Counted from the stretch's first letter, positions 1 through 9,869 are shown. The stretch is DNA of 9,869 bases from an uncultured bacterium (GCA_964565945.1 CAZMGY010000013.1:1-9869), one strand, 5' to 3'. Notes: a model not told the origin generated them from the letters alone. Translations and numbers: made by a program.

Positions 1-545
1 GCCAAGGATCAAGAGTATCAACGTTTGCAAGAGTCGTATGAAGAGCATCTGAAAAATCGGAAAGCTATGGAGCAAACAGCTAAGCGTTTGCAGGAAGAGA
101 TGCAAAGCCAAGATGAAAAATTTGTAGCTCAAAGGCAGGCATACACAAAGTTGCAACAGTTGCATGAGACTAAGCTTAAAGAACAGCATGGTTTAGAGCA
201 GAATTTGGAATATTTAGAGAAAAAATTACAGTCTCAGCAACGTGAACTTATGGCTAAGGATCAAGAGTATCAACGTTTGCAAGAGTCGTATGAAGAGCAT
301 CTGAAAAATCGGAAAGCTATGGAGCAAACAGCTAAGCGTTTGCAGGAAGAGATGCAAAGCCAAGATGAAAAATTTGTAGCTCAAAGACAGGCATACACAA
401 AGTTGCAACAGTTGCATGAGACTAAGCTTAAAGAACAGCGTGGTTTAGAGCAGAATTTGGAGTATTTAGAGAAAAAATTACAGTCTCAGCAACGTGAACT
501 TACGGCTAAGGATCAAGAGTATCAACGTTTGCAACAGTCGTATGA
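1..545 (+). repeat. In-frame 252-nt (84-aa) tandem repeat inside the coiled-coil CDS: two full copies plus ~41 nt of a third, running off the left edge
   Basis: Copy starts are at 1, 253 and 505 (GCyAAGGATCAAGAGTATCAACGTTTGCAA). Copies 1 and 2 differ at about five positions by hand comparison (e.g. CAT/CGT giving H->R, GAA/GAG, ATG/ACG giving M->T). Copy 3 diverges after ~545 (TCGTATGA|TGATGAATG versus TCGTATGA|AGAGCATCT). Confidence 0.95.
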
Positions 546-3500
546 TGATGAATGTAAAAAACGTCGCGGGGTTCATCAAAACTATGAGCGTTTAGAAAAA
601 GAGTTGACTCAGGTGCAAAAAGAGAACGATCATTTAGAAGATGATCTAGAGGCCAGTCAACAGGATGTCGATCAAGCGCGTAAGAAGTCTTTGAACCTAG
701 AAAAGGTTGCTAGGGATATGCTCAAAGTGCTGCGCCAATTGGAAAGCGAGTTTAGTCATCTTAAGAACCACCTGAAACAGAAAGATGAGATTTTGGTTGG
801 CTCTCAAAATCAGCTAACGAAACAAGATAAGCAGCTCGGTGCATATCGCAAGAATGTTGGAGAGTTGGAAGCCAAGCTGAAAGAGTTGGATTATCAGGCA
901 AGAGAGTTTAAAGTTGAGAAGGACACCCTTGAGGAGCAATATCAGCAAATCAAACGTCGTTCGCAGCGACAGGTAGAACAAAGCACTAAAGCCACGAAGC
1001 ACATAGAGGCTTTGGTGATGCGGTTGAAGTTGCAAGAGAATGATTTGAAAACGTCTCAAAAGGTGATCCAGGATTTGCAGGAGAAACTTAAGGCTCAAGT
1101 GGATGCATTGACGGCGAAAGAACAAGAACTGGCTAAGAGCAAAGAGAAGGTAGAGCAGGTGACGCGCCAATCCTTAGTGGAAATCGAAAGCTTAATCAAT
1201 CACTTGGAAGACAATCGTCGTACTGCGGATAAGGCTAAACTTGAATGGAATGAGCAATTTAAAGTTGAGCAACAGCTTGTTCAAAAACAAAAAGAACAAC
1301 TTAATCAGCAAGCCTCTTTATTGCAACAATGGTCTCAAAGATACGAAAACCTTGCGGCCAAGCTTGGAGGTGTTGAGCAAGAGAATCAGCAGCGCTTGGC
1401 TGAGGTGCAAAATGAGGCGAAGGTAGCGAAGGTGCAATTTGATCACTTGAATCAAGAGTATCAATCTCTGGTCGTCGAATTTCAGAATATGTCTCAGGCA
1501 AGAGAAACAATCGAAGCTCAGATGCGTTCTGCTCAACAAAAAGCGCAAACAAAGGACCTTAAAAACAAAGAGTTGCGTGAGGCGCTTAACCACAGTAAAG
1601 ATAATGCGGTGCAGCAAAACCTGAAGCTCAAGGAACTTGTGCAAAGTAGAGCCGATATTAAAGCCAAAGCAGAGTCAGAAATTCAAAACTTGCAAGAAAA
1701 ACTGCAAAACACCCGTTTGGAAGCCAGTGAGTTATCTCAGGCTCTTAAATTGCTTAAGCAAAATAAATCACTGTTGGATCAGCGTGTTGCCAGAGCCGAA
1801 AAAACTGTATCCTTTCAAGAAAAAAAACTGGAGCGTCTGCATGAAGATCGTCGCAACTTAATTCATAAGGGAGATCAGTTGCTTAAGGATAAGCTAGGCT
1901 TGACCGATAAATTGAGCGCTTCAAAAGAGGAGCTGTTCAAAAAAGAGGGGCAATTGAAAGAAAAAAGTTACTTGCGTCAAAAGCTTCATGAAAAAATCGA
2001 TCGCCTTCATCAGGATTTAAAGGAATTGGCGCAAGCAAGGGACGCTTTGAAGTTCGAATTAAGCCAGGTGCAAAAAACTAAAAGAGAGGTTGAAGTAGTT
2101 CAAGGTCAGTTGGTTCAAAAAAGTAAATTTTTGGAGCAAGAAAAATCTACTCTTGATCAAGAACTTAAGTGCGTGATTGCCGAAAAAATAACAATTAAAC
2201 AAAGAAATAAGGAACTAAGGGGCAAATTGGAGGTTTTTGAGAAAAAAGTCCTTGAGAGAGATACAGCGTTGGCTAGAGCGCAAAAAGATAATGGTTTTGT
2301 TCAAGCATCCTTGCAAAAACTTCAAAATCAATGGAGTGTTTTGAATCAAAAATGGAATGGTCTGCAAGCATGCTACCAGACTGAGACGGAATTACACAAT
2401 AAACTTAAGTCGTTGCACAACGAAACACTGCAGGAGCAGGAAAAACTTGTTGCCGATCTTGATCAAACACGGTCTGAACGGGAGCAAAGTTTGGCCCAAC
2501 TGGACAAGATTAAAGATCATAACGCTCAGTCGAAAGACTATTATGAATCGGTGATTAACCGTTTGAGTGCTGATTTAAGCACTCAGGAAAAGGAAATGAA
2601 AGACTTGGCGGGTGTTCTCGACAAGGAACGTCAGCAAGCCCTGCTTGTTGATCAAAAACTCGAAGCCGCTTCGGCCGAGGTGAATCAGTTAAGAACACAG
2701 GTTATAGTTCAAAAAAATGCCGAAAAAACTTTGCAGAAATCTTTAAGTGATGTAAAAGCTGATTTGGGACAAAAAAAAGAAACGGCTCTTAAGTTGTCTG
2801 GAGAGGTGCAGCAAAGAGATCAAAATTTAGCTCAGCTCGAAAAACAGATTTTGGTGACTGAGCAACAGTTCGATAGTTTAAAGGATCAGTACAGTATGCG
2901 TCTCAAAGATATTGAGCAGCTAGAGGAGGAGTTGGGAAGCACTCAAAGCAATTTTGAAGGATTAAAATCTAAACAAGACCAAATAGAGCAACGCAGCTTA
3001 AGTTTTGAATCGAGCAATATGAAAGTTCAAGAGCAAAATGTGGTATACAAAAAACAAATTCGTCAGCTCGAGAAAGATAAAAAACAATTCGAAAACGAGA
3101 TACGTCAGTACATTCGCAAAATAGAAGATGATTTGCTCAAGATTCAGGAAGAAAACCTGAGTCTTAAGCAAGGCATGAAGGAACTTAAGAATAAGCATTT
3201 AGACTATATCGGTAAGGATGACCATGACCAACGGGTTAAAGAGATCAAAAAGCGGTTGCAGATGATGCAGTTTAAACTAACACGTAGCGAGGATATGCGT
3301 AAGTCGATTGAGGATAATCAGCAACAAGCCAAATCGAAGATTAGCCTTTTGCAAGATAAATTGGCCGACAAGACCAAACAGTACGATGAGCTGAACAATA
3401 AGCTTAAAAAGAAATTTAAAGAGTTTTCGAAGGCGCTTAAAAGCAAGCGTCGCAAAGGTCAAGATCAGGCAATTCTTTTATTGATCGAAGAGTCCGAACG

Positions 3501-3912
3501 GATAAAAGTCGATTATGAGCAAGGTTTAAAGTCTTTGCGGAATGATTTATCCCGCATTCAGAACGAAACAAAAGATAAGGAGCAATATTATTTTTCGTTG
3601 GAAAATCAGTTGAGTGAAACGCAAGAATGTGTGAAACAATTGATCGACGAGAAAAAAGTGTGGATCAAAAAGCGCGTTCAGGCATTGAGCAACAACGGGG
3701 GAAATCCCCAAGTTGTGTCTTTGGCTCGTTTGTTGGATAATATCAAAACAGGCACCGATGATCAAAAAGCAGAGGCCTTGGTGATGTTAGGAAATATTGG
3801 AGACAGTCGTGCGACGCACGAGGTACAATCCTTTTTGCAAGGTGATTCTTCTGGATGGCTCAAACAGTTAGCGAAAGAAGCTTTGGATCTTATTGAAAGG
3901 AAAGTGGCTTAA
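1..3912 (+). CDS. Giant coiled-coil protein, 5'-partial (1303 codons visible), with a C-terminal HEAT-like repeat
   Basis: Frame 1 is open from nt 1. Codons 1-24 (AKDQEYQR) contain no stop and match the sequence at 253-276, so the TTG at 25 used by the ORF track is not the real start and the gene continues upstream. Stop TAA is at 3910-3912. The translation is E/K/Q/L-rich with heptad-like character throughout. No Walker A (GxxxxGK[ST]) is visible. The last ~65 aa (about nt 3712-3909), LARLLDNIKTGTDDQKAEALVMLGNIGDSRATHEVQSFLQGDSSGWLKQLAKEALDLI, fit the HEAT / PBS-lyase HEAT-like pattern (..A..aLG.IGD..a...L...L.d......a..AL). Confidence 0.9.
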   Translation, partial: AKDQEYQRLQESYEEHLKNRKAMEQTAKRLQEEMQSQDEKFVAQRQAYTKLQQLHETKLKEQHGLEQNLEYLEKKLQSQQRELMAKDQEYQRLQESYEEHLKNRKAMEQTAKRLQEEMQSQDEKFVAQRQAYTKLQQLHETKLKEQRGLEQNLEYLEKKLQSQQRELTAKDQEYQRLQQSYDDECKKRRGVHQNYERLEKELTQVQKENDHLEDDLEASQQDVDQARKKSLNLEKVARDMLKVLRQLESEFSHLKNHLKQKDEILVGSQNQLTKQDKQLGAYRKNVGELEAKLKELDYQAREFKVEKDTLEEQYQQIKRRSQRQVEQSTKATKHIEALVMRLKLQENDLKTSQKVIQDLQEKLKAQVDALTAKEQELAKSKEKVEQVTRQSLVEIESLINHLEDNRRTADKAKLEWNEQFKVEQQLVQKQKEQLNQQASLLQQWSQRYENLAAKLGGVEQENQQRLAEVQNEAKVAKVQFDHLNQEYQSLVVEFQNMSQARETIEAQMRSAQQKAQTKDLKNKELREALNHSKDNAVQQNLKLKELVQSRADIKAKAESEIQNLQEKLQNTRLEASELSQALKLLKQNKSLLDQRVARAEKTVSFQEKKLERLHEDRRNLIHKGDQLLKDKLGLTDKLSASKEELFKKEGQLKEKSYLRQKLHEKIDRLHQDLKELAQARDALKFELSQVQKTKREVEVVQGQLVQKSKFLEQEKSTLDQELKCVIAEKITIKQRNKELRGKLEVFEKKVLERDTALARAQKDNGFVQASLQKLQNQWSVLNQKWNGLQACYQTETELHNKLKSLHNETLQEQEKLVADLDQTRSEREQSLAQLDKIKDHNAQSKDYYESVINRLSADLSTQEKEMKDLAGVLDKERQQALLVDQKLEAASAEVNQLRTQVIVQKNAEKTLQKSLSDVKADLGQKKETALKLSGEVQQRDQNLAQLEKQILVTEQQFDSLKDQYSMRLKDIEQLEEELGSTQSNFEGLKSKQDQIEQRSLSFESSNMKVQEQNVVYKKQIRQLEKDKKQFENEIRQYIRKIEDDLLKIQEENLSLKQGMKELKNKHLDYIGKDDHDQRVKEIKKRLQMMQFKLTRSEDMRKSIEDNQQQAKSKISLLQDKLADKTKQYDELNNKLKKKFKEFSKALKSKRRKGQDQAILLLIEESERIKVDYEQGLKSLRNDLSRIQNETKDKEQYYFSLENQLSETQECVKQLIDEKKVWIKKRVQALSNNGGNPQVVSLARLLDNIKTGTDDQKAEALVMLGNIGDSRATHEVQSFLQGDSSGWLKQLAKEALDLIERKVA

Positions 3913-4592
3913 TGCTAAAAGATTCGCGTACACCTAAGAAAAAGACAGATGTGCGGACTTTACTCTATAAAGATATCGAGGGGGACTTTTCTTCGACGAT
4001 GGCGGAAGCATCAACAGAGGAGAAAGTTCTGGGGCGCAAAAGTAGCTCGGTTTTGGAGCAAGAGTTAACTTTGGCTCGTAAGGATATCGACAAATGCTCT
4101 CGTCTCGCCGATAAGTACTATAAAGAGAAACACTTTCTTATGCGTCGTCTTAAGATGAATAAGTCTCAGCTTTTGCGTGAACTTTGGAGCTTTCAGATAC
4201 TTATTCAGACCATGAAAATTGTTCGGTTACCTGGTTTTATTGGAACCGTTTTAACTTTGAATCTTATGTTACTGGTGTACATTATTTTTCAGTCAGGGAT
4301 TGCTCAGCCACAAAAAAAACCTCAGGAACTGGTGAGTTTGAGTCATAGTTTGGAAAAGCCCTACACCATTCAAGTGGATGCTTTTGAATCTTTGGAGCAA
4401 GCGAAAGGGATGGTGGTCGATCTAAAAGGTTTGGGCTATCAGGCTTATATTGGTAAAATGTTTCAAAATAAGAAAGATGTGTATCGTGTGTATGTGGATG
4501 AATTTGCTCATCTGAAGGATGTGCGAAAGGTGATGAAAAAACTCAAAAAAATATCTGCTTATGAAAAAAGTTTTGTGCGCAGAAAGTATTAG
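3912..4592 (+). CDS. Coiled-coil / single-TM / C-terminal SPOR-domain protein (peptidoglycan-binding, septal-type)
   Basis: ATG 3912-3914 overlaps the upstream stop by 1 nt (TAATG). AGGA at 3898-3901 lies 10 nt upstream. There is a hydrophobic helix IVRLPGFIGTVLTLNLMLLVYIIFQSGIA (about nt 4218-4305). The C-terminal sequence YTIQVDAFESLEQAKGMVVDLKGLGYQAYIGKMFQNKKDVYRVYVDEFAHLKDVRKVMKKLKK (about nt 4359-4557) matches the SPOR pattern (Y.vQ.gaF....A......L...G..a.i......YRV.vG.F....a......L). Stop TAG is at 4590-4592. Confidence 0.8.
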   Translation: MLKDSRTPKKKTDVRTLLYKDIEGDFSSTMAEASTEEKVLGRKSSSVLEQELTLARKDIDKCSRLADKYYKEKHFLMRRLKMNKSQLLRELWSFQILIQTMKIVRLPGFIGTVLTLNLMLLVYIIFQSGIAQPQKKPQELVSLSHSLEKPYTIQVDAFESLEQAKGMVVDLKGLGYQAYIGKMFQNKKDVYRVYVDEFAHLKDVRKVMKKLKKISAYEKSFVRRKY

Positions 4593-4594
4593 GT

Positions 4595-5569
4595 GTGATG
4601 ATTCGTTGGTGTGGGGCTATTTGGGGGATTGGGCTAAGCTTAGGGTTGCCTCTCCTTTGGGCCGATACAATTTACTTAAAAAATGGGAAAATTTATCTTG
4701 GGCAGGTGGAAGAGCTTTACGAAGATCGTATTGTTTTGGCCGAAGTGAGTGGAAAACTCACCCTTCAACGTTCCAGCATTCGTAAAATTGTCTATGATGC
4801 CGAAGATAAAAACCTTTTGGCGATGGGCAATCGTTATTTTAAAAAAGATCGTTTTCAAGAAGCTCTCTCCTATTACGAAAAAGCGCTGAAGGTGAATCCT
4901 CAATCCAACGAGGTCAAAGAGGGCATTCTTAAAGTGCGTGGTGTTTTGTTTCGCAAGCGGGAAAAACAGCAATCTAAACAGGTCAACCAACGACGCAATA
5001 TTGACAAATGGAGTGAAACCACCCGCAAGCACTATGTGGCACCTAAAGAAAGTGATCGTGATCCCACAGGTTATGTGGAGCAATTTTTGGGCTTGGCCGT
5101 TACGTGTAAGGATGCGAGTTTTGTTGTTTCGGATGTTGTGCCCGAATCGCCTGCTCAAAAATTACATATCTTTCGTGGTGACACGGTTTACGCTGTGAAT
5201 GGGCAAAAAGTGGGACGGATGTCGATAGATGCACTTTATGGCTTTCTGGCAGGAAATAGAAAGGGCGATTTGAAGCTAACGATTGAGCGCAAAGTTGTTA
5301 TATTACGTGGCAGTCGGAGTTTTTATCAAGGTCCATGGGCTTGGATAGACGCAAAAGTGAGGAAAATCGACAAAGGCTTTCGTGTTCTCTCTGTTAAGAG
5401 CAATGGTAGAGCTGACTTGGCAGGTCTTCGTATTCATGATATAATAACAAACGTTGAAGGAGAACCCTCATTATTTATGTCTATAGAGAGCTTTCAACGC
5501 AAGATTAAGGGTGAGCAAGGATCGCGATTGGTGATGAGAATTATTCGCCAGTTAAAGATTAAGCGGTAA
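4595..5569 (+). CDS. Secreted/periplasmic TPR + tandem PDZ domain protein
   Basis: The start is GTG 4595 or ATG 4598, 2 nt after the upstream stop. The N-terminal signal-like segment is MMIRWCGAIWGIGLSLGLPLLWA|DT. The TPR motif is LLAMGNRYFKKDRFQEALSYYEKALKVNPQSNEV. PDZ-1 (about nt 5084-5302) reads GLAVTCKDASFVVSDVVPESPAQKLHIFRGDTVYAVNGQKV...GDLKLTIERK. PDZ-2 (about nt 5342-5548) reads GFRVLSVKSNGRADLAGLRIHDIITNVEGEP...GSRLVMRIIR. Stop TAA is at 5567-5569. Confidence 0.85.
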   Translation: MMIRWCGAIWGIGLSLGLPLLWADTIYLKNGKIYLGQVEELYEDRIVLAEVSGKLTLQRSSIRKIVYDAEDKNLLAMGNRYFKKDRFQEALSYYEKALKVNPQSNEVKEGILKVRGVLFRKREKQQSKQVNQRRNIDKWSETTRKHYVAPKESDRDPTGYVEQFLGLAVTCKDASFVVSDVVPESPAQKLHIFRGDTVYAVNGQKVGRMSIDALYGFLAGNRKGDLKLTIERKVVILRGSRSFYQGPWAWIDAKVRKIDKGFRVLSVKSNGRADLAGLRIHDIITNVEGEPSLFMSIESFQRKIKGEQGSRLVMRIIRQLKIKR

Positions 5570-5623
5570 TAAGGCTGTGAGGCCCTTAATGTTAAACAAT
5601 AGGTGTATGAGGAGAGTGTTATA

Positions 5624-6160
5624 ATGCGTAAGAAAAAACAAGTTACCAACGAATCCCGCATTTTAGACATTAATACGGATATGCAGGGGACTTTGACTTT
5701 TAAAGAGCCTATGCATTTAACCATTCAAGGCACGTTTGAGGGCTTTTTGGATACCAAAGGATATTTGGAAATTGGGAAAAAAGCACGTATAAAAGGCGAT
5801 ATTCAGGGTGAAGAAATTGTTGTGTCGGGTCATATTGAAGGCAACATTTTTGCCGACAAATTATTGAGAGTGACGGCCACGGGTTCTGTGAAAGGCGATT
5901 TGAACGTCAAAAGCCTTAATTTAGATTTAGGTGCTGTGTTTGAAGGTGTGTGTCGGATGAACAATCTGGAAAATTACGTCCCGGGGCCTGATCAGATGTC
6001 AATTGAAGATGTTGCTCAATACCTAAATGTGGATTCCCAAAAAGTCAAAAAATGGATCGAAGATGGATTATTACCGAGCGAAAATATTGATAATCATTAC
6101 ATTATTTGTCGTTCTGATGTGGATATTTGGGTGAACGATCAAAAAATGCGTATGAGCTAG
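5624..6160 (+). CDS. Bactofilin (polymer-forming cytoskeletal beta-helix) fused to a C-terminal excisionase/MerR-type helix-turn-helix
   Basis: I prefer ATG 5624 (MRKKKQ...), with GAGGAG at 5609-5614 nine nt upstream. The track's GTG 5603 is the longest alternative. The bactofilin-type repeat region (about nt 5663-5960) reads LTFKEPMHLTIQGTFEGFLDTKGYLEIGKKARIKGDIQGEEIVVSGHIEGNIFADKLLRVTATGSVKGDLNVKSLNLDLGAVFEGVCRM, including the typical terminal L.L..GA.FeG.c.M. The HTH_17-like tail (about nt 5996-6134) reads MSIEDVAQYLNVDSQKVKKWIEDGLLPSENIDNHYIICRSDVDIWV. Stop TAG is at 6158-6160. Confidence 0.8.
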   Translation: MRKKKQVTNESRILDINTDMQGTLTFKEPMHLTIQGTFEGFLDTKGYLEIGKKARIKGDIQGEEIVVSGHIEGNIFADKLLRVTATGSVKGDLNVKSLNLDLGAVFEGVCRMNNLENYVPGPDQMSIEDVAQYLNVDSQKVKKWIEDGLLPSENIDNHYIICRSDVDIWVNDQKMRMS

Positions 6161-6171
6161 GGGGGGGGGGG
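6160..6171 (+). repeat. G12 homopolymer bridging the bactofilin stop codon and the next gene's GTG start
   Basis: The sequence reads ...ATGAGCTA[GGGGGGGGGGGG]TGGAAACG. The first G is the last base of stop TAG (6158-6160). The last G is the first base of start GTG (6171-6173). It is the only long G run in an otherwise AT-rich window. Confidence 0.95.
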
Positions 6172-6464
6172 TGGAAACGTTTTTAACCATTCGGGAGGTT
6201 GCAAGAGAGCTGAATGTGAGTGAGGATAACGTGCTCAGCTTGGTCAAAAAAGAGCGTGTGTCGGCGTATCGCATTGGGGGTGAATACATTCGTTTGCGTC
6301 GTGAGGATGTTTTGCAGCTTAAGGATGCTTTTTGGACGGAGCCCTTACCCAAAGAAAAAAAAGGTCGGGGTTTGTGGCAATGGGTCAAAAATAGCAGTAT
6401 TTTTTTTCTTTTGACAGCTGTATGCTTAGGATTAGGTTACTACATTCTTCAGTATCTTCTTTAA
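6171..6464 (+). CDS. Small excisionase/MerR-type HTH protein with a C-terminal transmembrane anchor
   Basis: GTG 6171 is the first possible start after the in-frame TGA at 6153, and it is needed to include the HTH. The poly-G upstream can act as a Shine-Dalgarno-like element. The HTH_17-like sequence is LTIREVARELNVSEDNVLSLVKKERVSAYRIGGEYIRLRREDVLQL. The C-terminal hydrophobic helix is NSSIFFLLTAVCLGLGYYILQYLL. Stop TAA is at 6462-6464. Confidence 0.75.
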   Translation: METFLTIREVARELNVSEDNVLSLVKKERVSAYRIGGEYIRLRREDVLQLKDAFWTEPLPKEKKGRGLWQWVKNSSIFFLLTAVCLGLGYYILQYLL

Positions 6465-6506: not shown

Positions 6507-6586
6507 AGATAATAGTTATTATTAAATTTTTTTTGTTGAATTAAGTAATAATGAGGTAAAGAAATATGAAATAAGGAAAAGTATTT

Positions 6587-7100
6587 ATGAGGTTATGGGC
6601 AATGTTTTTAGTATTTGCTATAATCACAGTGGCGTCAAGAGAGGCATGGGCTCTGGCCATATCTACGAAATTGGGTGGTTTGGATCAAATGCTTGAAAGG
6701 TAAAGGGCAACGTCAGCTATCATCAACCCCCACTGAGGTAAATGCTTTGGACGCGGTGATGGAAATGTTGTCTGACACTGTTCCTCTAACACAAGAACTT
6801 CGTGAGAAAATTAAACAAGATATTAAGAAACTGCTTAGAGGTGAGACAGACTATCTTGCGCTGGCCTAGGGTTTTGCCAGGGTTAAAGCGGGTCTTTCCT
6901 ATATATCATTGGAGCAAACAGATAGTCCTGGAACATTTCACGTTTCAAGCTCAGAAAAAACCAGGGTTTTTTCTGAACAAATCACAAAGCTTCTAGGCTC
7001 CTACGTAGATGAGGCAGATTACGAGGCCTTTTTAAATTCCAAAAGATATCAAAAGAAAGTCGGTAGTTACTTAGCCTTAGATTTGAGGGGGAATTGGTAA
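6587..7100 (+). pseudogene. Decayed paralog of the secreted modular repeat protein encoded at 8179-9869
   Basis: The stretch 6587-6700 (frame 2) encodes MRLWAMFLVFAIITVASREAWALAISTKLGGLDQMLER. By hand count it is ~85% nt-identical to 8191-8294 (MRLWATFFLFAMITVVSTEAWSLAPSTKLWGLDQTLED), but it hits TAA at 6701-6703. Homology resumes in frame 3 as TPTEVNALDAVMEMLSDTVPLTQELREKIKQDIKKLLRGETDYLALA. This matches the module-A start of the intact gene (ANTLDAVMEMLSESVLLTQELREQIKQYMGSLVGADKDYLMAV). An in-frame TAG follows at 6867-6869, then GFARVKAGLS...DYEAFLNSKRYQKKVG (compare FAFARVKAGFS...YRAFLDANAKDQQQG), ending at TAA 7098-7100. Relative to the intact gene, ~65 nt after the signal peptide and the 60/61-nt coiled-coil insert are both missing. 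Confidence 0.7.
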
Positions 7101-7875
7101 TCCTAGAAGTTGCTAGTCGTGTTCAAGGATTTAAAGGTCAAGCTAATCCTTTTGATACTGGCGCTCGCGGTATAACTCAAAAAGAAGTTCAGTTTAGAGA
7201 AACGGATGCTGGTGAGCTTAAAACAGAAAGAGTTTATCTTAACTGATAAATCAGAAGATAGTCTGTTTGCGGGTGTTACTCGCTGGAGTGCCAAAAATCG
7301 TCGTTGGGTTAGAATTATTCGAGTTAAAAAGAGCTTTTCTTCGGAGTCTGTGTTTAAGTACACGGCTTTGTTTGAAGCTATCAAAGCTTCGATGATGAAA
7401 GAAGCGGAGGTTGCCTCAGAAGCAAAAATGCTTACCAAATATGGTTTAAGTTCTGAGGCTATTACGGCGGACACTCAAGAGTATATTATGGTTCTTGGAT
7501 GCTTCAATGCTAAAGTTCATGCTTTAGCATGGGCTAACATGAAGGTGCCCGACTTGTACGCTTTTGGTGGAAGGATTAACAGAGTACCAGGATTCTCTTG
7601 AGGAGCTTAAAGATCTAGGTTTAAAGATGCTGGCTGTTCCTAGTGATTCGGTAATAGCTTTGGGTGAGGCTATTAAGCAGGCTCAAGCTATTGGTAAGGA
7701 AGATCTTCAAAGACTTCTTCAGAAACTACTCTTATTGATTAATATGGCTCAAAACACGTTAGATGCTAAGATGAGAGGAGCGTCTTTCTCTGCTGTTATT
7801 GAGGGAACATGGGTCGTTAAAGGAGTAAGCTTAGCTCGGACGTTTGAATGGAACTCGACCTTATATAGTGCCTAA
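7067..7875 (+). pseudogene. Chain of three overlapping + strand reading frames (2 -> 3 -> 1) of unknown function: a frameshift-disrupted gene, or the C-terminal part of the decayed paralog
   Basis: Frame 2 is open 7067-7246 with no ATG (..LEVASRVQGFKGQANPFDTGARGITQKEVQFRETDAGELKTERVYLN*). Frame 3 is open 7176-7601 (track ORF 7206..7601). Frame 1 is open 7543-7875 (track ORF 7564..7875, TTG start). Each segment overlaps the next by 40-70 nt, all have protein-like composition, and the last ends 31 nt before a terminator hairpin. I recognised no homolog. Confidence 0.4.
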
Positions 7876-8178: not shown

Positions 8179-9869
8179 ATGAAAAATACTATGAGGTTAT
8201 GGGCAACGTTTTTCTTATTTGCTATGATCACAGTTGTGTCAACAGAGGCATGGTCTTTGGCCCCATCTACGAAATTGTGGGGTTTGGATCAGACGCTTGA
8301 AGATATGGTCGATTGGGGTGAGCAATTGAAGCCACAAGGTATTCTTCAAGCTACGCCACAGCAGCTTAAAGGGGAACAGCAGTTATCACTAGCAGAACAG
8401 CCTGGTTTAGAGCAGAATTTGGAGTATTTAGAGAAAAAATTACAGTCTCAGCAACGTGAACTTCCCACTGCTGAGGCAAACACTTTGGACGCGATGATGG
8501 AAATGTTGTCTGAAAGTATTCCTCTAACACAAGAACTTCGTGATCAAATTGAACAATACATGGGGAGCCTAGTTGGAGCTGAAAAAGACTATCTTATGGC
8601 GCTTTTTGCTTTTGCCAGGGTTAAAGCAGGTTTTTCCGATATAAAATTGCAGCTAACAAGTGCTGGAACAGTTGAAGCTTCAATATCAGAAGAAAGTAAG
8701 TCTCTTTATCAACAAGTCCTACGGGCTCTACTCAGCGGCTTGGGAAATGGTGAGCTCGAAACCTTTTATGATCGTTACAGGGCCTTTTTAGATGCCAACG
8801 CAAAAGATCAGCAGCAAGGCACGATGTCAATTTTGGAGCAAGAGAGTGTCTCAGATGAACAGACACCTCCAACTGAGGTAAATACTTTGGAGCAAGAGAC
8901 TGTCTCAGATGAACAATTATCCCTCATGGTGGCAAACACTTTGGAGCAAGAGACTGTCTCAGATGAACAGACACCTCCCACTGAGGTAAATACTTTGGAG
9001 CAAGAGACTGTCTCAGATGAACAGACACCCCGCGCTGAGGAAAAAATTTGGGAAGAGGCGGTGGAAGGGTTGATTGCAACTACTAAAGTGAAAAAAAGAC
9101 TTCGTGGTCAAATTACAAAAGAGCTTGAGAGCCTGGTTGGATCCGAGAAAGATACGCTTGCGGCGGTCTATGCTGTGGTCATGGCTAAAGCTGGTCTTTC
9201 CGATCAAAAATTGAATCGAACAGATAGTGATAAAACAGTTGAAGTTTCAAGCAAAAGTACCAAGTTGCGTTGTAATCAAATGGCAAAGGCTCTAGAGCCC
9301 TACATAACCGATTTGCGTTACAAGGCCTTTTTAGAAATCAACCAAGAAGATCAGCAGCAAGGTGCGATATCAACTTTGGAGCAAGAGACTGTATCAGATA
9401 AACAATTACCCCTTATGGTGGCAAACACTTTGGACGCGGTGATGGAAATGTTGTCTGAAAGTGTTCTTCTAACACAAGAACTTCGTGAGCAAATTAAACA
9501 ATATATGGGGAGCCTGGTTGGCGCTGACAAAGACTATCTTATGGCGGTCTTTGCTTTTGCTGGGGTTAAAGCAGGTTTTTTTGATAAAAAACTGCAGCTA
9601 ACAAGTGGTGGAACAGTTGAAGTTTCAACATCAGAAGAAAGTAAGTCTCTTTATCAAAAAATTGTAAAGACTTTACTCCGGGGTCTTGAAGAAACTGTCG
9701 CTGACGTCTTTACTGAGCGTTATATGGCCTTTTTAGAGATCAACCAAGAAGATCAGCAACAAGGCGCGACGTCAACTTTGGAGCAAGAGACTGTCTCAGA
9801 TGAACAGACACCCCGCGCTGAGGAAAAAACTTGGGAAGAGGTGGTGGAAGGATTGTCTGTAAGTCCTGA
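8179..9869 (+). CDS. Secreted modular repeat protein, 3'-partial (563 codons, no stop before the window end); absent from the supplied ORF track
   Basis: I translated frame 1 codon by codon from 8179 to 9867 and found no stop. The final bases are CCT GA, so the terminal TGA is out of frame. Start ATG 8179 has GAGGAG at 8163-8168; ATG 8191 is an alternative. The signal peptide is MKNTMRLWATFFLFAMITVVSTEAWSLA|PS. The body is A-type modules (ANTLDAxMEMLSES..LTQELRxQIxQYMGSLVGAxKDYLMAxFAFAxVKAGF.D.KLQLTS.GTVE.S.SEESKSLYQ...FL....DQQQG). These alternate with a diverged B-type module (EEKIWEEAVEGL...VKKRLRGQITKELESLVGSEKDTLAAVYAVVMAKAGLSDQKLNRTDSDKTVEVSSKSTKL...YKAFLEINQEDQQQG). The modules are joined by TLEQETVSDEQ linkers. 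Confidence 0.85.
   Translation, partial: MKNTMRLWATFFLFAMITVVSTEAWSLAPSTKLWGLDQTLEDMVDWGEQLKPQGILQATPQQLKGEQQLSLAEQPGLEQNLEYLEKKLQSQQRELPTAEANTLDAMMEMLSESIPLTQELRDQIEQYMGSLVGAEKDYLMALFAFARVKAGFSDIKLQLTSAGTVEASISEESKSLYQQVLRALLSGLGNGELETFYDRYRAFLDANAKDQQQGTMSILEQESVSDEQTPPTEVNTLEQETVSDEQLSLMVANTLEQETVSDEQTPPTEVNTLEQETVSDEQTPRAEEKIWEEAVEGLIATTKVKKRLRGQITKELESLVGSEKDTLAAVYAVVMAKAGLSDQKLNRTDSDKTVEVSSKSTKLRCNQMAKALEPYITDLRYKAFLEINQEDQQQGAISTLEQETVSDKQLPLMVANTLDAVMEMLSESVLLTQELREQIKQYMGSLVGADKDYLMAVFAFAGVKAGFFDKKLQLTSGGTVEVSTSEESKSLYQKIVKTLLRGLEETVADVFTERYMAFLEINQEDQQQGATSTLEQETVSDEQTPRAEEKTWEEVVEGLSVSP
8403..8463 (+). repeat. 61-nt segment identical to nt 441-501 of the coiled-coil gene's tandem repeat (dispersed repeat, in frame in both genes)
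   Basis: TGGTTTAGAGCAGAATTTGGAGTATTTAGAGAAAAAATTACAGTCTCAGCAACGTGAACTT occurs at both 441-501 and 8403-8463, read by eye with no mismatch. It encodes GLEQNLEYLEKKLQSQQREL in both genes. It matches the copy-2 variant (GGAGTAT) and not copy 1 (GGAATAT at ~207). Confidence 0.9.
8476..9869 (+). repeat. Higher-order module repeat: A-type module at 8476-8829 and 9421-9774 (offset 945 nt); a 783-nt A+B super-unit (9001-9783) restarts at 9784
   Basis: GCAAACACTTTGGACGCG occurs at 8476 and 9421. CAAGAGACTGTCTCAGATGAACAGACACCCCGCGCTGAGGAAAAA occurs at 9001 and 9784 (783 nt = 261 codons). The offset 945 equals 783 + 3x54, so it is explained by the three extra linker copies. The repeat is still running at the window edge. 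Confidence 0.85.
8830..9045 (+). repeat. 54-nt (18-aa) in-frame tandem repeat x4 (acidic linker ..NTLEQETVSDEQ..)
   Basis: TTGGAGCAAGAG starts at 8833, 8887, 8941 and 8995, exactly 54 nt apart. The conserved core is TTGGAGCAAGAGACTGTCTCAGATGAACA. The variable 3' third reads ACACCTCCAACTGAGGTAAAT, TTATCCCTCATGGTGGCAAAC, ACACCTCCCACTGAGGTAAAT and ACACCCCGCGCTGAGGAAAAA. Single dispersed copies lie at ~9375 and ~9778. Confidence 0.9.

Follow-up and report, generated by a model that had tools for sequence, protein, structure and literature searches.

What kind of system is encoded where a bactofilin gene stands next to genes for a SPOR protein and a giant coiled-coil protein? This question is raised by a five-gene cluster on contig CAZMGY010000013.1 (assembly GCA_964565945.1) of an uncultured bacterium. 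The window—here the whole stretch of DNA that was analyzed, which is the entire 9869-bp contig—has parts that are present in at least 8 public sequencing runs, and five plus-strand open reading frames, g1 to g5, fill its positions 1–6464. They encode a giant coiled-coil protein (g1), a bitopic SPOR protein (g2), a TPR-PDZ-PDZ protein (g3), a bactofilin fused to a winged helix-turn-helix (HTH) domain (g4), and a small HTH protein with a C-terminal transmembrane (TM) segment (g5); all coordinates are collected in Table 1. The source is an uncultured PVC-group bacterium, related to 'PVC group bacterium ex Bugula neritina AB1' and to Candidatus Omnitrophota. As laid out below, g4 and g5 are a conserved pair that is found throughout Omnitrophota, and the clade of the window has this pair joined to g1–g3 in what we read, at roughly even odds, as a trans-envelope scaffold.

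The g4–g5 pair can be followed far beyond the window. A word-index homology search with g4 alone returned g4 itself as the sole match; an exhaustive HMMER search with g4 gave 8134 bactofilin matches, among which about 25 cluster representatives align over the full length at 33–43% identity. Scanning species genomes (one genome per GTDB species) with a four-sequence g4 alignment located 392 loci with a relative, 80 of which were fetched and are nearly all labeled Candidatus Omnitrophota—a sample that the four-sequence query biases toward typical Omnitrophota and in which reading frames are simple open reading frame calls. Directly downstream of g4 and on the same strand, 78 of these 80 loci carry a g5-homologous HTH_17 reading frame of 91–115 amino acids (aa), at a gap of −1 to 339 nucleotides (nt), and all but one of these homologues (77/78) bear a C-terminal hydrophobic segment. 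The flanks of the pair vary and are of the housekeeping type, with TsaD, MgtC, and MnmA upstream and AcpS, YdjC-like, SurE, or LarB/LarC downstream. The bactofilin–HTH and HTH–TM genes are thereby a conserved and old two-gene unit. Giant reading frames upstream of g4 in three loci (L017, L038, and L084) were considered as g1 relatives and turned out to be multi-domain enzymes.

The start of g4 is most likely the ATG at 5624, with AGGAG upstream. Pfam matches both halves of the protein, Bactofilin (PF04519/DUF583) with an E of 1.4e-22 over profile positions 3–97 of 98 and HTH_17 with an E of 5.1e-10. The AlphaFold2 (AF2) model reaches a mean predicted local distance difference test score (pLDDT) of 88.9, and the strands of residues 12–112 are at a pLDDT of at least 95. 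Foldseek places this β-helix next to TtBac of Thermus (6rib) and BacA of Caulobacter (2n3d) at target-normalized template modeling scores of 0.72–0.80, and g4 may polymerize in the nucleotide-independent manner of bactofilins. The HTH of g4, which spans residues 127–177 in the model, is structurally matched by RacA (5i44), BldC (6ama), the mycobacteriophage excisionase Xis (4j2n), and MerR-type N-domains, with RacA also being its best sequence match in the PDB (E 0.11). For g5, HTH_17 (PF12728) is detected at an E of 1.1e-7 and TIGR01764 at an E of 6e-10. Both proteins pass both models: HTH_17 scores 39.9 bits for g4 and 32.4 for g5 (cut-off 27), and TIGR01764 scores 33.3 bits for g4 and 39.3 for g5 (cut-off 28.8).

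How such a bactofilin might reach the membrane is suggested by its N-terminus. The canonical membrane-targeting sequence of bactofilins is MFSKKKK, of which Phe2 and the lysines are essential (PMC12448750). Among the g4 homologues with a g5 partner, 75/80 lack F, W, Y, L, or I at positions 2–4 and start with MAKK, MANN, or similar; the g4 of the window starts with MRKKKQ, where the lysines are present and the hydrophobic residue is absent, a departure from the membrane-targeting consensus. A sister subfamily of bactofilin–HTH proteins (26–28% identity) has no g5-like neighbor in the contexts seen, and eight of the nine members that were read begin with an MxFF..KRKK-like sequence (MKFF.., MRFFNFKRKK, or MFFFKRRK), the ninth being N-terminally extended before an internal FFF. 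As the phenylalanine is missing in the partnered g4 proteins and present in the unpartnered sister subfamily, g5 may supply the membrane attachment, and this reciprocal pattern suggests g5 as the membrane anchor of the fused-HTH bactofilin. The gene contexts of the sister subfamily (L090, L142, L144, and the context of P0166) hold Volactin (PF25216), a ParA/MinD-like ATPase with an AMPK1_CBM domain, and unknown proteins upstream, and PAS-HisKA, a sigma54 response regulator, and a gas-vesicle protein gene downstream.

The earlier note on this DNA, generated from the sequence alone, had taken the two HTHs as a possible link to DNA. Their assignment stands, as both are of the RacA/BldC/Xis type; the link to DNA appears plausible only for the g5 type and is doubtful for the acidic HTH of g4. 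RacA touches DNA via Lys15, Arg19, Arg30, and Tyr36, and its wing dimerizes via Gly34 (PMC4914108). At the position of Arg19, the key DNA-reading residue, the g4 family carries Glu or Asp in 78/80 members and the g5 family Lys or Arg in 54/78, with Lys in the g4 and Ser in the g5 of the window. The Arg30 position is non-basic in the g4 family (mostly Phe or Gln; Asn in the window) and Lys or Arg in 74/78 g5 proteins (Arg in the window). Gly34 is matched by Gly in 63/80 members of the g4 family and in all 78 of the g5 family (window: Asn in g4, Gly in g5), and Tyr36 by Trp in 77/80 and by Tyr in 72/78, respectively, with Tyr in both proteins of the window. The g5 of the window also has Asp at the Lys15 position, and the g5 of L151, like that of the window, has Ser at the Arg19 position. 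In net charge, the g4 HTH stands at −6 in the window and at −3 in the family median, and the g5 HTH is neutral, with a basic juxtamembrane linker after it. Charge and contact-residue pattern taken together make DNA binding plausible, at the level of the family, for g5-type proteins and doubtful for g4-type HTHs.

The five reading frames, their order, and their junctions are all as the earlier note had placed them. The stop of g1 and the start of g2 overlap by 1 nt (TAATG at 3910–3914), the g2–g3 gap is 2 nt with a GTG start and 5 nt with an ATG start, the g3–g4 gap of 54 nt (5570–5623) is the largest of the cluster, and g4 and g5 are separated by 10 nt, all of them G. A convincing plus-strand terminator was not found between the five genes; inspection of junctions and terminators thus upholds the operon-like arrangement that had been proposed, and the five genes are probably co-transcribed. 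The domains named in the earlier note also find support throughout, with the proviso that HEAT_2 is subthreshold in Pfam and is carried by a clear match to alphaRep proteins, as is the envelope and cytoskeletal theme that it had read from them.

The earlier note had further held that a lack of synteny in related genomes would speak against its reading; synteny was found, in pieces, among relatives with 41–66% identical proteins. From the 80 fetched loci, it first appeared that g1 and g2 are nowhere syntenic, which was overturned within the clade of the window by a protein search with g2 that returned three relatives (P0270, P0271, and P0272). In 'PVC group bacterium (ex Bugula neritina AB1)' (P0271, locus L145; 50% g2 identity), a 2553-aa g1 homologue is followed by g2 at a TAAATG junction. 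The context of P0272 (L147/L148; 41% g2 identity) shows two g1-like reading frames, g2 with an 11-nt overlap, g3 (52%, with TPR and two PDZ), and a g4 homologue starting MRKKKKKASVETKILEINADMQGTL that begins 56 nt past g3; that of P0270 (L150; 61% g2 identity) shows the end of g1, then g2, g3 (66%), and a g4-like start MRKRKK. On the contig of the closest g4 relative (P0004, L151), g3 (31%), g4 (41%), and g5 with an 11-nt overlap follow one another. Over these relatives of 31–66% identity, the strand and a g3–g4 spacing of 27–56 nt are kept. The synteny within this clade is based on five short contigs; one more (L152) was too short to be informative and was left out. On L145, the end of an IS200-like Y1 transposase gene (10700–10877, minus strand; Y1_Tnp E 4.5e-10) lies directly after g2 at the contig end, so that anything that comes after g2 is hidden from view.

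The g1–g2 pair is seen in the clade of the window only, and g3 joins g4–g5 in some Omnitrophota in a different order: g4-g5-g3 occurs in 5/80 genome loci (L056, L074, L080, L082, and L087) and in one metagenome locus, and in L095 another reading frame intervenes between g4–g5 and g3. The last gene of L089 was considered as a g3 homologue and ruled out. The cluster is hence not one indivisible unit and resolves into two older ones, unit A (g1-g2-g3) and unit B (g4-g5).

Within unit A, g1 is dominated by its coiled coil. Its residues are to 51% Q, K, L, or E, the only proline is residue 1236, and as far as about residue 1218 the heptad periodicity exceeds background 3–11 times. If the visible part formed one uninterrupted coiled coil, it would be about 180 nm long (calculated from 1230 aa at 0.148 nm per residue). 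Over its last ~70 aa, g1 clearly matches consensus-designed HEAT-like alphaRep proteins (PDB 6ft5, E 1.9e-14). Pfam HEAT_2 (PF13646) stays below its gathering cut-off of 27.7 bits in the window (E 0.058, 14.1 bits), in L145 (E 2.3e-4, 21.8 bits), and in L147 (E 0.012, 16.3 bits), with only about two repeats present. The C-termini of g1 and its homologues are RKVA, RAAA, KKAA, and QDAV. The complete homologue in L145 is without a Pfam domain and is 32% identical to the last 700 aa of the g1 of the window (E 1.6e-76). The two complete homologues (L145 and L147) open on a basic n-region, continue with about 20 hydrophobic residues, and then reach a conserved GFS(S/Q)E site; a ~75-aa N-terminal helical domain is also common to them, at 51% identity. 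By the positive-inside rule, this N-terminus would be a Sec signal peptide or signal anchor, which most likely places the rod outside the cytoplasm, so that the coiled coil is probably periplasmic or exported. The idea of the earlier note of a cytoplasmic filament built from giant coiled coil and bactofilin is therefore unsupported, as far as the Sec signal or anchor of the complete homologues can stand in for the g1 N-terminus that the window lacks. The tandem repeat at the beginning of the window probably accounts for assemblies stopping at the left contig end.

In g2, Pfam finds SPOR (PF05036) at an E of 2.8e-13 over profile positions 3–76 of 76, and the AF2 model displays the β-α-β-β-α-β SPOR fold at residues 151–224 with a pLDDT near 89, following a disordered linker between TM helix and SPOR. 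The protein remains far below the NCBIfam cut-offs of FtsN (20.8 bits vs 107.65), DedD (14.1 vs 150), and RlpA (12.6 vs 201). The conservation of its cytoplasmic part equals that of its SPOR domain. The motifs LGRKSxSVLE, ELWSF, and SFVRRKY are invariant in a four-homologue alignment (identity 41–61%), and DVxxxLY is conserved as well. LGRKSxSVLE, DVxxxLY, and ELWSF are candidate partner-binding or phosphorylation sites, and the cytoplasmic part would most readily suggest itself as the link to g4 or g5. LGRKSxSVLE is located at 4029–4058 of the window (g2 residues 40–49).

In the third protein, g3, a hydrophobic N-terminus precedes one TPR (E 5.6e-7) and two PDZ stretches (PDZ_6 E 2.1e-19), and the protein would be secreted. 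A protease domain is not detected in it, with no Peptidase_S41 or trypsin match in Pfam and NCBIfam, which sets it apart from the Prc/Ctp (S41) peptidases and the HtrA proteases. Its PDZ stretches match best to Prc/Ctp-type PDZ models, with TIGR00225 reaching 58.8 bits against a cut-off of 218.6 and covering the PDZ stretches only. The PDZ domains of Prc/Ctp tail-specific proteases recognize non-polar C-termini, and given the Prc/Ctp-like PDZ domains of g3 and the non-polar C-termini of g1, a contact between g3 and the g1 tail is a testable guess. The N-domain of g3 resembles the N-terminal domain of the Leptospira-specific LA_0442/LA_0875 proteins (Lepto_7_Nterm, NF047433; E 1.2e-7, below cut-off). 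The Omnitrophota-type g3 always precedes a 123–201-aa membrane protein (L056, L074, L080, L082, L087, and L093–L098), with HAMP in 4/4 copies that were Pfam-scanned; this HAMP partner is absent from the window. In two loci, L096 (5923–10497) and L098 (163–4096), g3 and the HAMP protein are directly followed by mraZ-rsmH-(ftsL-like)-ftsI.

Table 1 Features of the five-gene cluster, with positions counted from the first nucleotide of the window.
Feature	Position (nt)	Strand	Residues (aa)	Description or basis
g1	1-3912	+	1303 visible	giant coiled-coil protein; 5' end missing at contig edge
g1 tandem repeat	4-545	+		unit of 252 nt (84 aa), 2.2 copies at 98% identity; at left contig end
g1 HEAT-like cap	3706-3909	+		PBS-lyase/alphaRep-type; ~2 repeats; non-polar tail ...RKVA
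g2	3912-4592	+		bitopic SPOR protein
g2 cytoplasmic helix	4044-4223	+	45-104	AF2 model
g2 TM helix	4230-4292	+	107-127	AF2 model
g2 SPOR domain	4356-4583	+	149-224	Pfam
g3	4595 (GTG) or 4598 (ATG) to 5569	+		signal peptide, TPR, two PDZ
g3 N-domain	4655-4798	+	~21-68	ADTxxLKxG...IVL...G; conserved in all g3 homologues
g3 TPR	4814-4903	+		Pfam
g3 PDZ domains	5081-5293 and about 5345-5551	+		Pfam
Promoter-like site	5417-5445	+		TTGGCA-17-TATAAT with upstream TG; 11/12 sigma-70-like matches; within g3 3' end, 180 nt before g4
g4	5624-6160	+		bactofilin and winged HTH
g4 bactofilin β-helix	5657-5959	+	12-112	Pfam, AF2, Foldseek
g4 winged HTH	5996-6154	+	125-177	acidic; preceded by ~12-residue low-confidence linker
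g5	6171-6464	+		HTH and C-terminal TM segment; tail-anchored
g5 winged HTH	6180-6320	+	4-50	followed by basic linker
g5 C-terminal TM segment	6393-6461	+	75-97 of 97	hydropathy

From these domains, predicted folds, topology signals, and synteny, we infer the contacts and the cellular role of a trans-envelope scaffold, to which we assign a probability of about 0.5: a bactofilin polymer on the inner membrane held by g5, coupled to denuded peptidoglycan by g2, and facing a periplasmic g1 fiber organized by g3. In such a scaffold, g4 would polymerize under the inner membrane, and g5 would hold it there, as g4 is without the N-terminal Phe. Precedent for a partnership of this kind comes from BacR: this HTH protein binds to bactofilins, which retain it at the membrane (PMC13649987). 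The contact of g4 and g5 might be either HTH to HTH, via wing or α1 as in RacA/BldC domains, or HTH to β-helix, as modeled for BacR, and g5-type HTHs possibly touch DNA in addition. The cytoplasmic tail of g2 may serve as bactofilin client peptide, in the way BacA recruits the bitopic envelope protein PbpC by its cytoplasmic tail (PMC12448750), with the SPOR domain fixing the complex to denuded—septal or remodeling—glycan. On the periplasmic side, the Prc-like PDZ domains of g3 could hold the non-polar C-terminus of the g1 fiber. The likely role of such a scaffold would be the positioning of envelope growth or division.

Several observations weigh against this scaffold. No g1 or g2 homologue is found within 10 kb of g4–g5 in the 80 Omnitrophota loci; phmmer of these loci returned no SPOR, g2 N-terminal, or g1 C-terminal match, and they contain no coiled-coil-rich reading frame of at least 600 aa. 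The Pfam scan of 110 neighbor representatives covers the top 25 families, a view that a single SPOR neighbor could escape. Hence, g1-g2-g3 and g4-g5 may simply be neighbors in one clade, and the gene order shared by related metagenome-assembled genomes can partly reflect ancestry rather than function. The periplasmic location of g1 is deduced from two homologous N-termini by means of the positive-inside rule and not by a trained predictor of signal peptides. Moreover, the g1 rod evolves fast and bears near-identical tandem repeats, and 70 nt at 99% identity are common to the g1 repeat (432–501) and a downstream gene for a secreted repeat protein (8394–8463), a pattern that a surface or secreted protein would show more typically than a structural ruler. 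The shared segment encodes GLEQNLEYLEKKLQSQQREL and suggests recent recombination between the two genes. Lastly, the sister subfamily keeps the acidic HTH although it is unpartnered, so that binding g5 cannot be the only role of this domain.

That the cluster consists of two unrelated adjacent modules—an envelope or surface triad g1-g2-g3 and a separate g4–g5 with its own promoter, without physical coupling—appears somewhat unlikely to us. Most Omnitrophota do carry g4–g5 without g1–g3 and amid housekeeping genes (TsaD, MgtC, AcpS, and SurE), g1 and g2 are never near g4–g5 outside the clade of the window, and both the largest gap of the cluster and the 11/12 promoter-like site precede g4. This site could be a separate promoter for g4–g5, a lead only; the count of such sites across the window is not above that of shuffled sequence. 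However, g3 adjoins g4–g5 in two orders, g3-g4-g5 (window, L148, L150, and L151) and g4-g5-g3 (the five genome loci named above), and its renewed adjacency after rearrangement favors linkage over chance, as does the retention of g3–g4 spacing and strand over diverged relatives. A different role for unit A is conceivable in a host-associated PVC bacterium: g1 could be a secreted or surface protein for host interaction—an adhesin or effector—with g2 and g3 aiding its export or anchoring. The Sec-type N-terminus of the homologues, the near-identical 84-aa tandem repeats with only the last 700 aa aligning between relatives, the 70 nt shared with the neighboring repeat-protein gene, whose paralogue decays, and the origin of the closest named relative from a bryozoan would all fit. 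Yet the g1 gene is coupled start to stop with the SPOR gene in four lineages (11-nt overlap to 2-nt gap), its N-terminal domain and HEAT-like C-terminal cap are both conserved, and no secretion-system gene or adhesin domain was detected by Pfam and NCBIfam, which leaves this reading unlikely.

The HTHs of unit B open two further readings. In one, g4–g5 would tether the chromosome, bound by the winged HTHs, to the membrane or a cell pole for segregation, in the style of RacA–DivIVA or BacNOP–PadC–ParB; this would be compatible with the scaffold, and we regard it as doubtful. For both HTHs, structure and sequence are best matched by the RacA DNA-binding domain, BldC, and Xis; the RacA contact positions are retained in the g5 family (Lys or Arg at Arg19 in 54/78 and at Arg30 in 74/78, Gly34 in 78/78, and Tyr36 in 72/78), and the g4 of the window has Lys at the Arg19 position. 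Against this stand the Glu or Asp at Arg19 in 78/80 of the g4 family with its net negative HTH, the Ser and Asp of the window g5 at Arg19 and Lys15 and the Ser of the L151 g5 at Arg19, and a cluster without a ParB, ParA, or parS-like partner. In the other, g5, perhaps with the HTH of g4, would be a BacR-like switch—a membrane-sequestered transcription factor autoregulating its operon, whose DNA binding the bactofilin would block or release. The gene of BacR (YhbD) lies with those of BacE and BacF; BacR binds to DNA, is contacted close to its HTH by the two bactofilins, and acts only on its own operon (PMC13649987), and the HTH_17/MerR-like class consists mostly of regulators or excisionases; but g5 is permanently TM-anchored with no evident release mechanism, DUF4004 is missing, no operator-like repeats came up (no search aimed at them was made), and the recognition helix of the window g5 is without basic residues, and we hold such a switch to be quite improbable. 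The boldest reading places the full cluster, in the clade of the window, at the core of a division or septal scaffold that depends on peptidoglycan and not on FtsZ, where g4–g5 would mark the site inside, g2 would read denuded septal glycan, and g1, held by g3, would form a ring or ruler outside the membrane. FtsZ is reported lacking and peptidoglycan synthesis genes are kept in the AB1_div bin, the closest named relative (PMC5041132), and this combination leaves the reading open at low probability. Omnitrophota keep dcw genes (PMC12283558), so that g4–g5, which they carry alone, is by itself no FtsZ substitute. A role in anti-phage defense was tried with PADLOC and rejected, as only HTH-level mad1 similarity (27.5 and 22 bits) and no match to g1, g2, or g3 was obtained.

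Compared with described systems, the cluster appears most like bactofilin-client modules and BacR–BacEF, with an HTH fold like that of RacA. Bactofilin-client modules also comprise BacA–LmdC in Hyphomonas and CcmA–Csd5 in Helicobacter. In BacA–PbpC of Caulobacter (PMC12448750), the polymer recruits a bitopic protein via its cytoplasmic tail, and a periplasmic domain acts on or binds peptidoglycan—a topology that g2 shares. In contrast to these modules, the periplasmic domain of g2 is SPOR and not PBP, LytM, or SH3, g4 lacks the targeting Phe and bears an HTH, and the contact of g2 with g4 would still be a proposed one. BacR–BacE/BacF of Bacillus subtilis (PMC13649987) is alike in having a small HTH protein encoded beside bactofilins, which it binds near its HTH and which keep it at the membrane; in the present cluster, the bactofilin itself carries one HTH by fusion, the second HTH protein brings a TM segment of its own, and the HTHs are of the HTH_17/excisionase-like class, with no Pfam match to DUF4004 in g4 or g5 at E up to 0.1. 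RacA–DivIVA of B. subtilis (PMC4914108) also combines a RacA-type winged HTH, a flexible linker, a self-assembling domain, and membrane tethering, but here the self-assembling domain is a β-helix and not a coiled coil, the partner is a TM protein and not DivIVA, and Arg19 is replaced by Glu or Asp in 78/80 g4 relatives. BacNOP–PadC–ParAB of Myxococcus xanthus (PMC5703909) likewise links a bactofilin scaffold to DNA-binding proteins; there, the link runs via the adaptor PadC and ParB, whereas the present bactofilin has the HTH built in, and Par proteins are absent from the cluster.

For single proteins, similar comparisons can be drawn. In layout, g5 resembles RodZ of the RodZ–MreB system: a cytoplasmic HTH precedes a TM segment, and the gene stands with that of a cytoskeletal polymer. 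The HTH of RodZ reportedly binds the polymer (MreB) and not DNA, as van den Ent et al. are said to have described in 2010. Unlike RodZ, g5 carries an HTH_17 and not an XRE-type domain, is tail-anchored without a periplasmic domain, and is partnered with a bactofilin and not with MreB. With FtsN, DedD, and DamX, g2 shares the N-in bitopic topology and the C-terminal SPOR domain—DamX also having a sizeable cytoplasmic part—but it differs in its scores far below the FtsN and DedD cut-offs and in a cytoplasmic helix and motifs that are specific to the clade of the window. Since a tested defining feature of each of FtsN, DedD, RodZ, BacR, and Prc is missing here, the proteins of the cluster lie outside those families. 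The domains themselves are known, and the HTH fusion, the obligate partner, and the five-gene combination are undescribed; a literature text search returned no paper naming bactofilin and Omnitrophota together.

The surroundings of the cluster hold some further features. The 10-nt spacer of g4 and g5 is part of a run of 12 G (6160–6171) that links the stop codon of g4 with the GTG start of g5 and is the sole G/C run of at least 9 nt in the window. Its length varies by sample, with G10 in L007, G12 in L001 and L003, and at least G14 in L005, and 5/8 other assemblies break within it; none of 78 homologous g4–g5 spacers has a G or C run of at least 7 nt. The tract could be a slippage-prone element tuning g5 translation, or a sequencing or assembly artifact. 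Downstream of g5, two paralogous genes for signal-peptide repeat proteins follow (6584–7875 and 8179–9869), neither with an informative family match. Four or more frame changes or stops break up the first, a likely pseudogene; the second is intact, runs off the right contig end, and bears 54-nt tandem repeats at 8832–9051. Rfam and tRNA scans of the window gave no match.

Bactofilins are widespread, and few of their client systems are understood. The analysis identifies a phylum-wide bactofilin subfamily of Omnitrophota, with relatives in 392 species genomes, in which a winged-HTH fusion is paired with a tail-anchored HTH protein, and the reciprocal pattern of phenylalanine and partner offers a simple hypothesis for how bactofilins reach the membrane. 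One clade of the PVC group—a group in which little is known of how division and shape are controlled, and in which some members are without FtsZ—adds to this pair a SPOR protein, a PDZ adaptor, and a coiled coil that is probably periplasmic and measures 1300 to more than 2500 aa, and the whole is a candidate trans-envelope machine.

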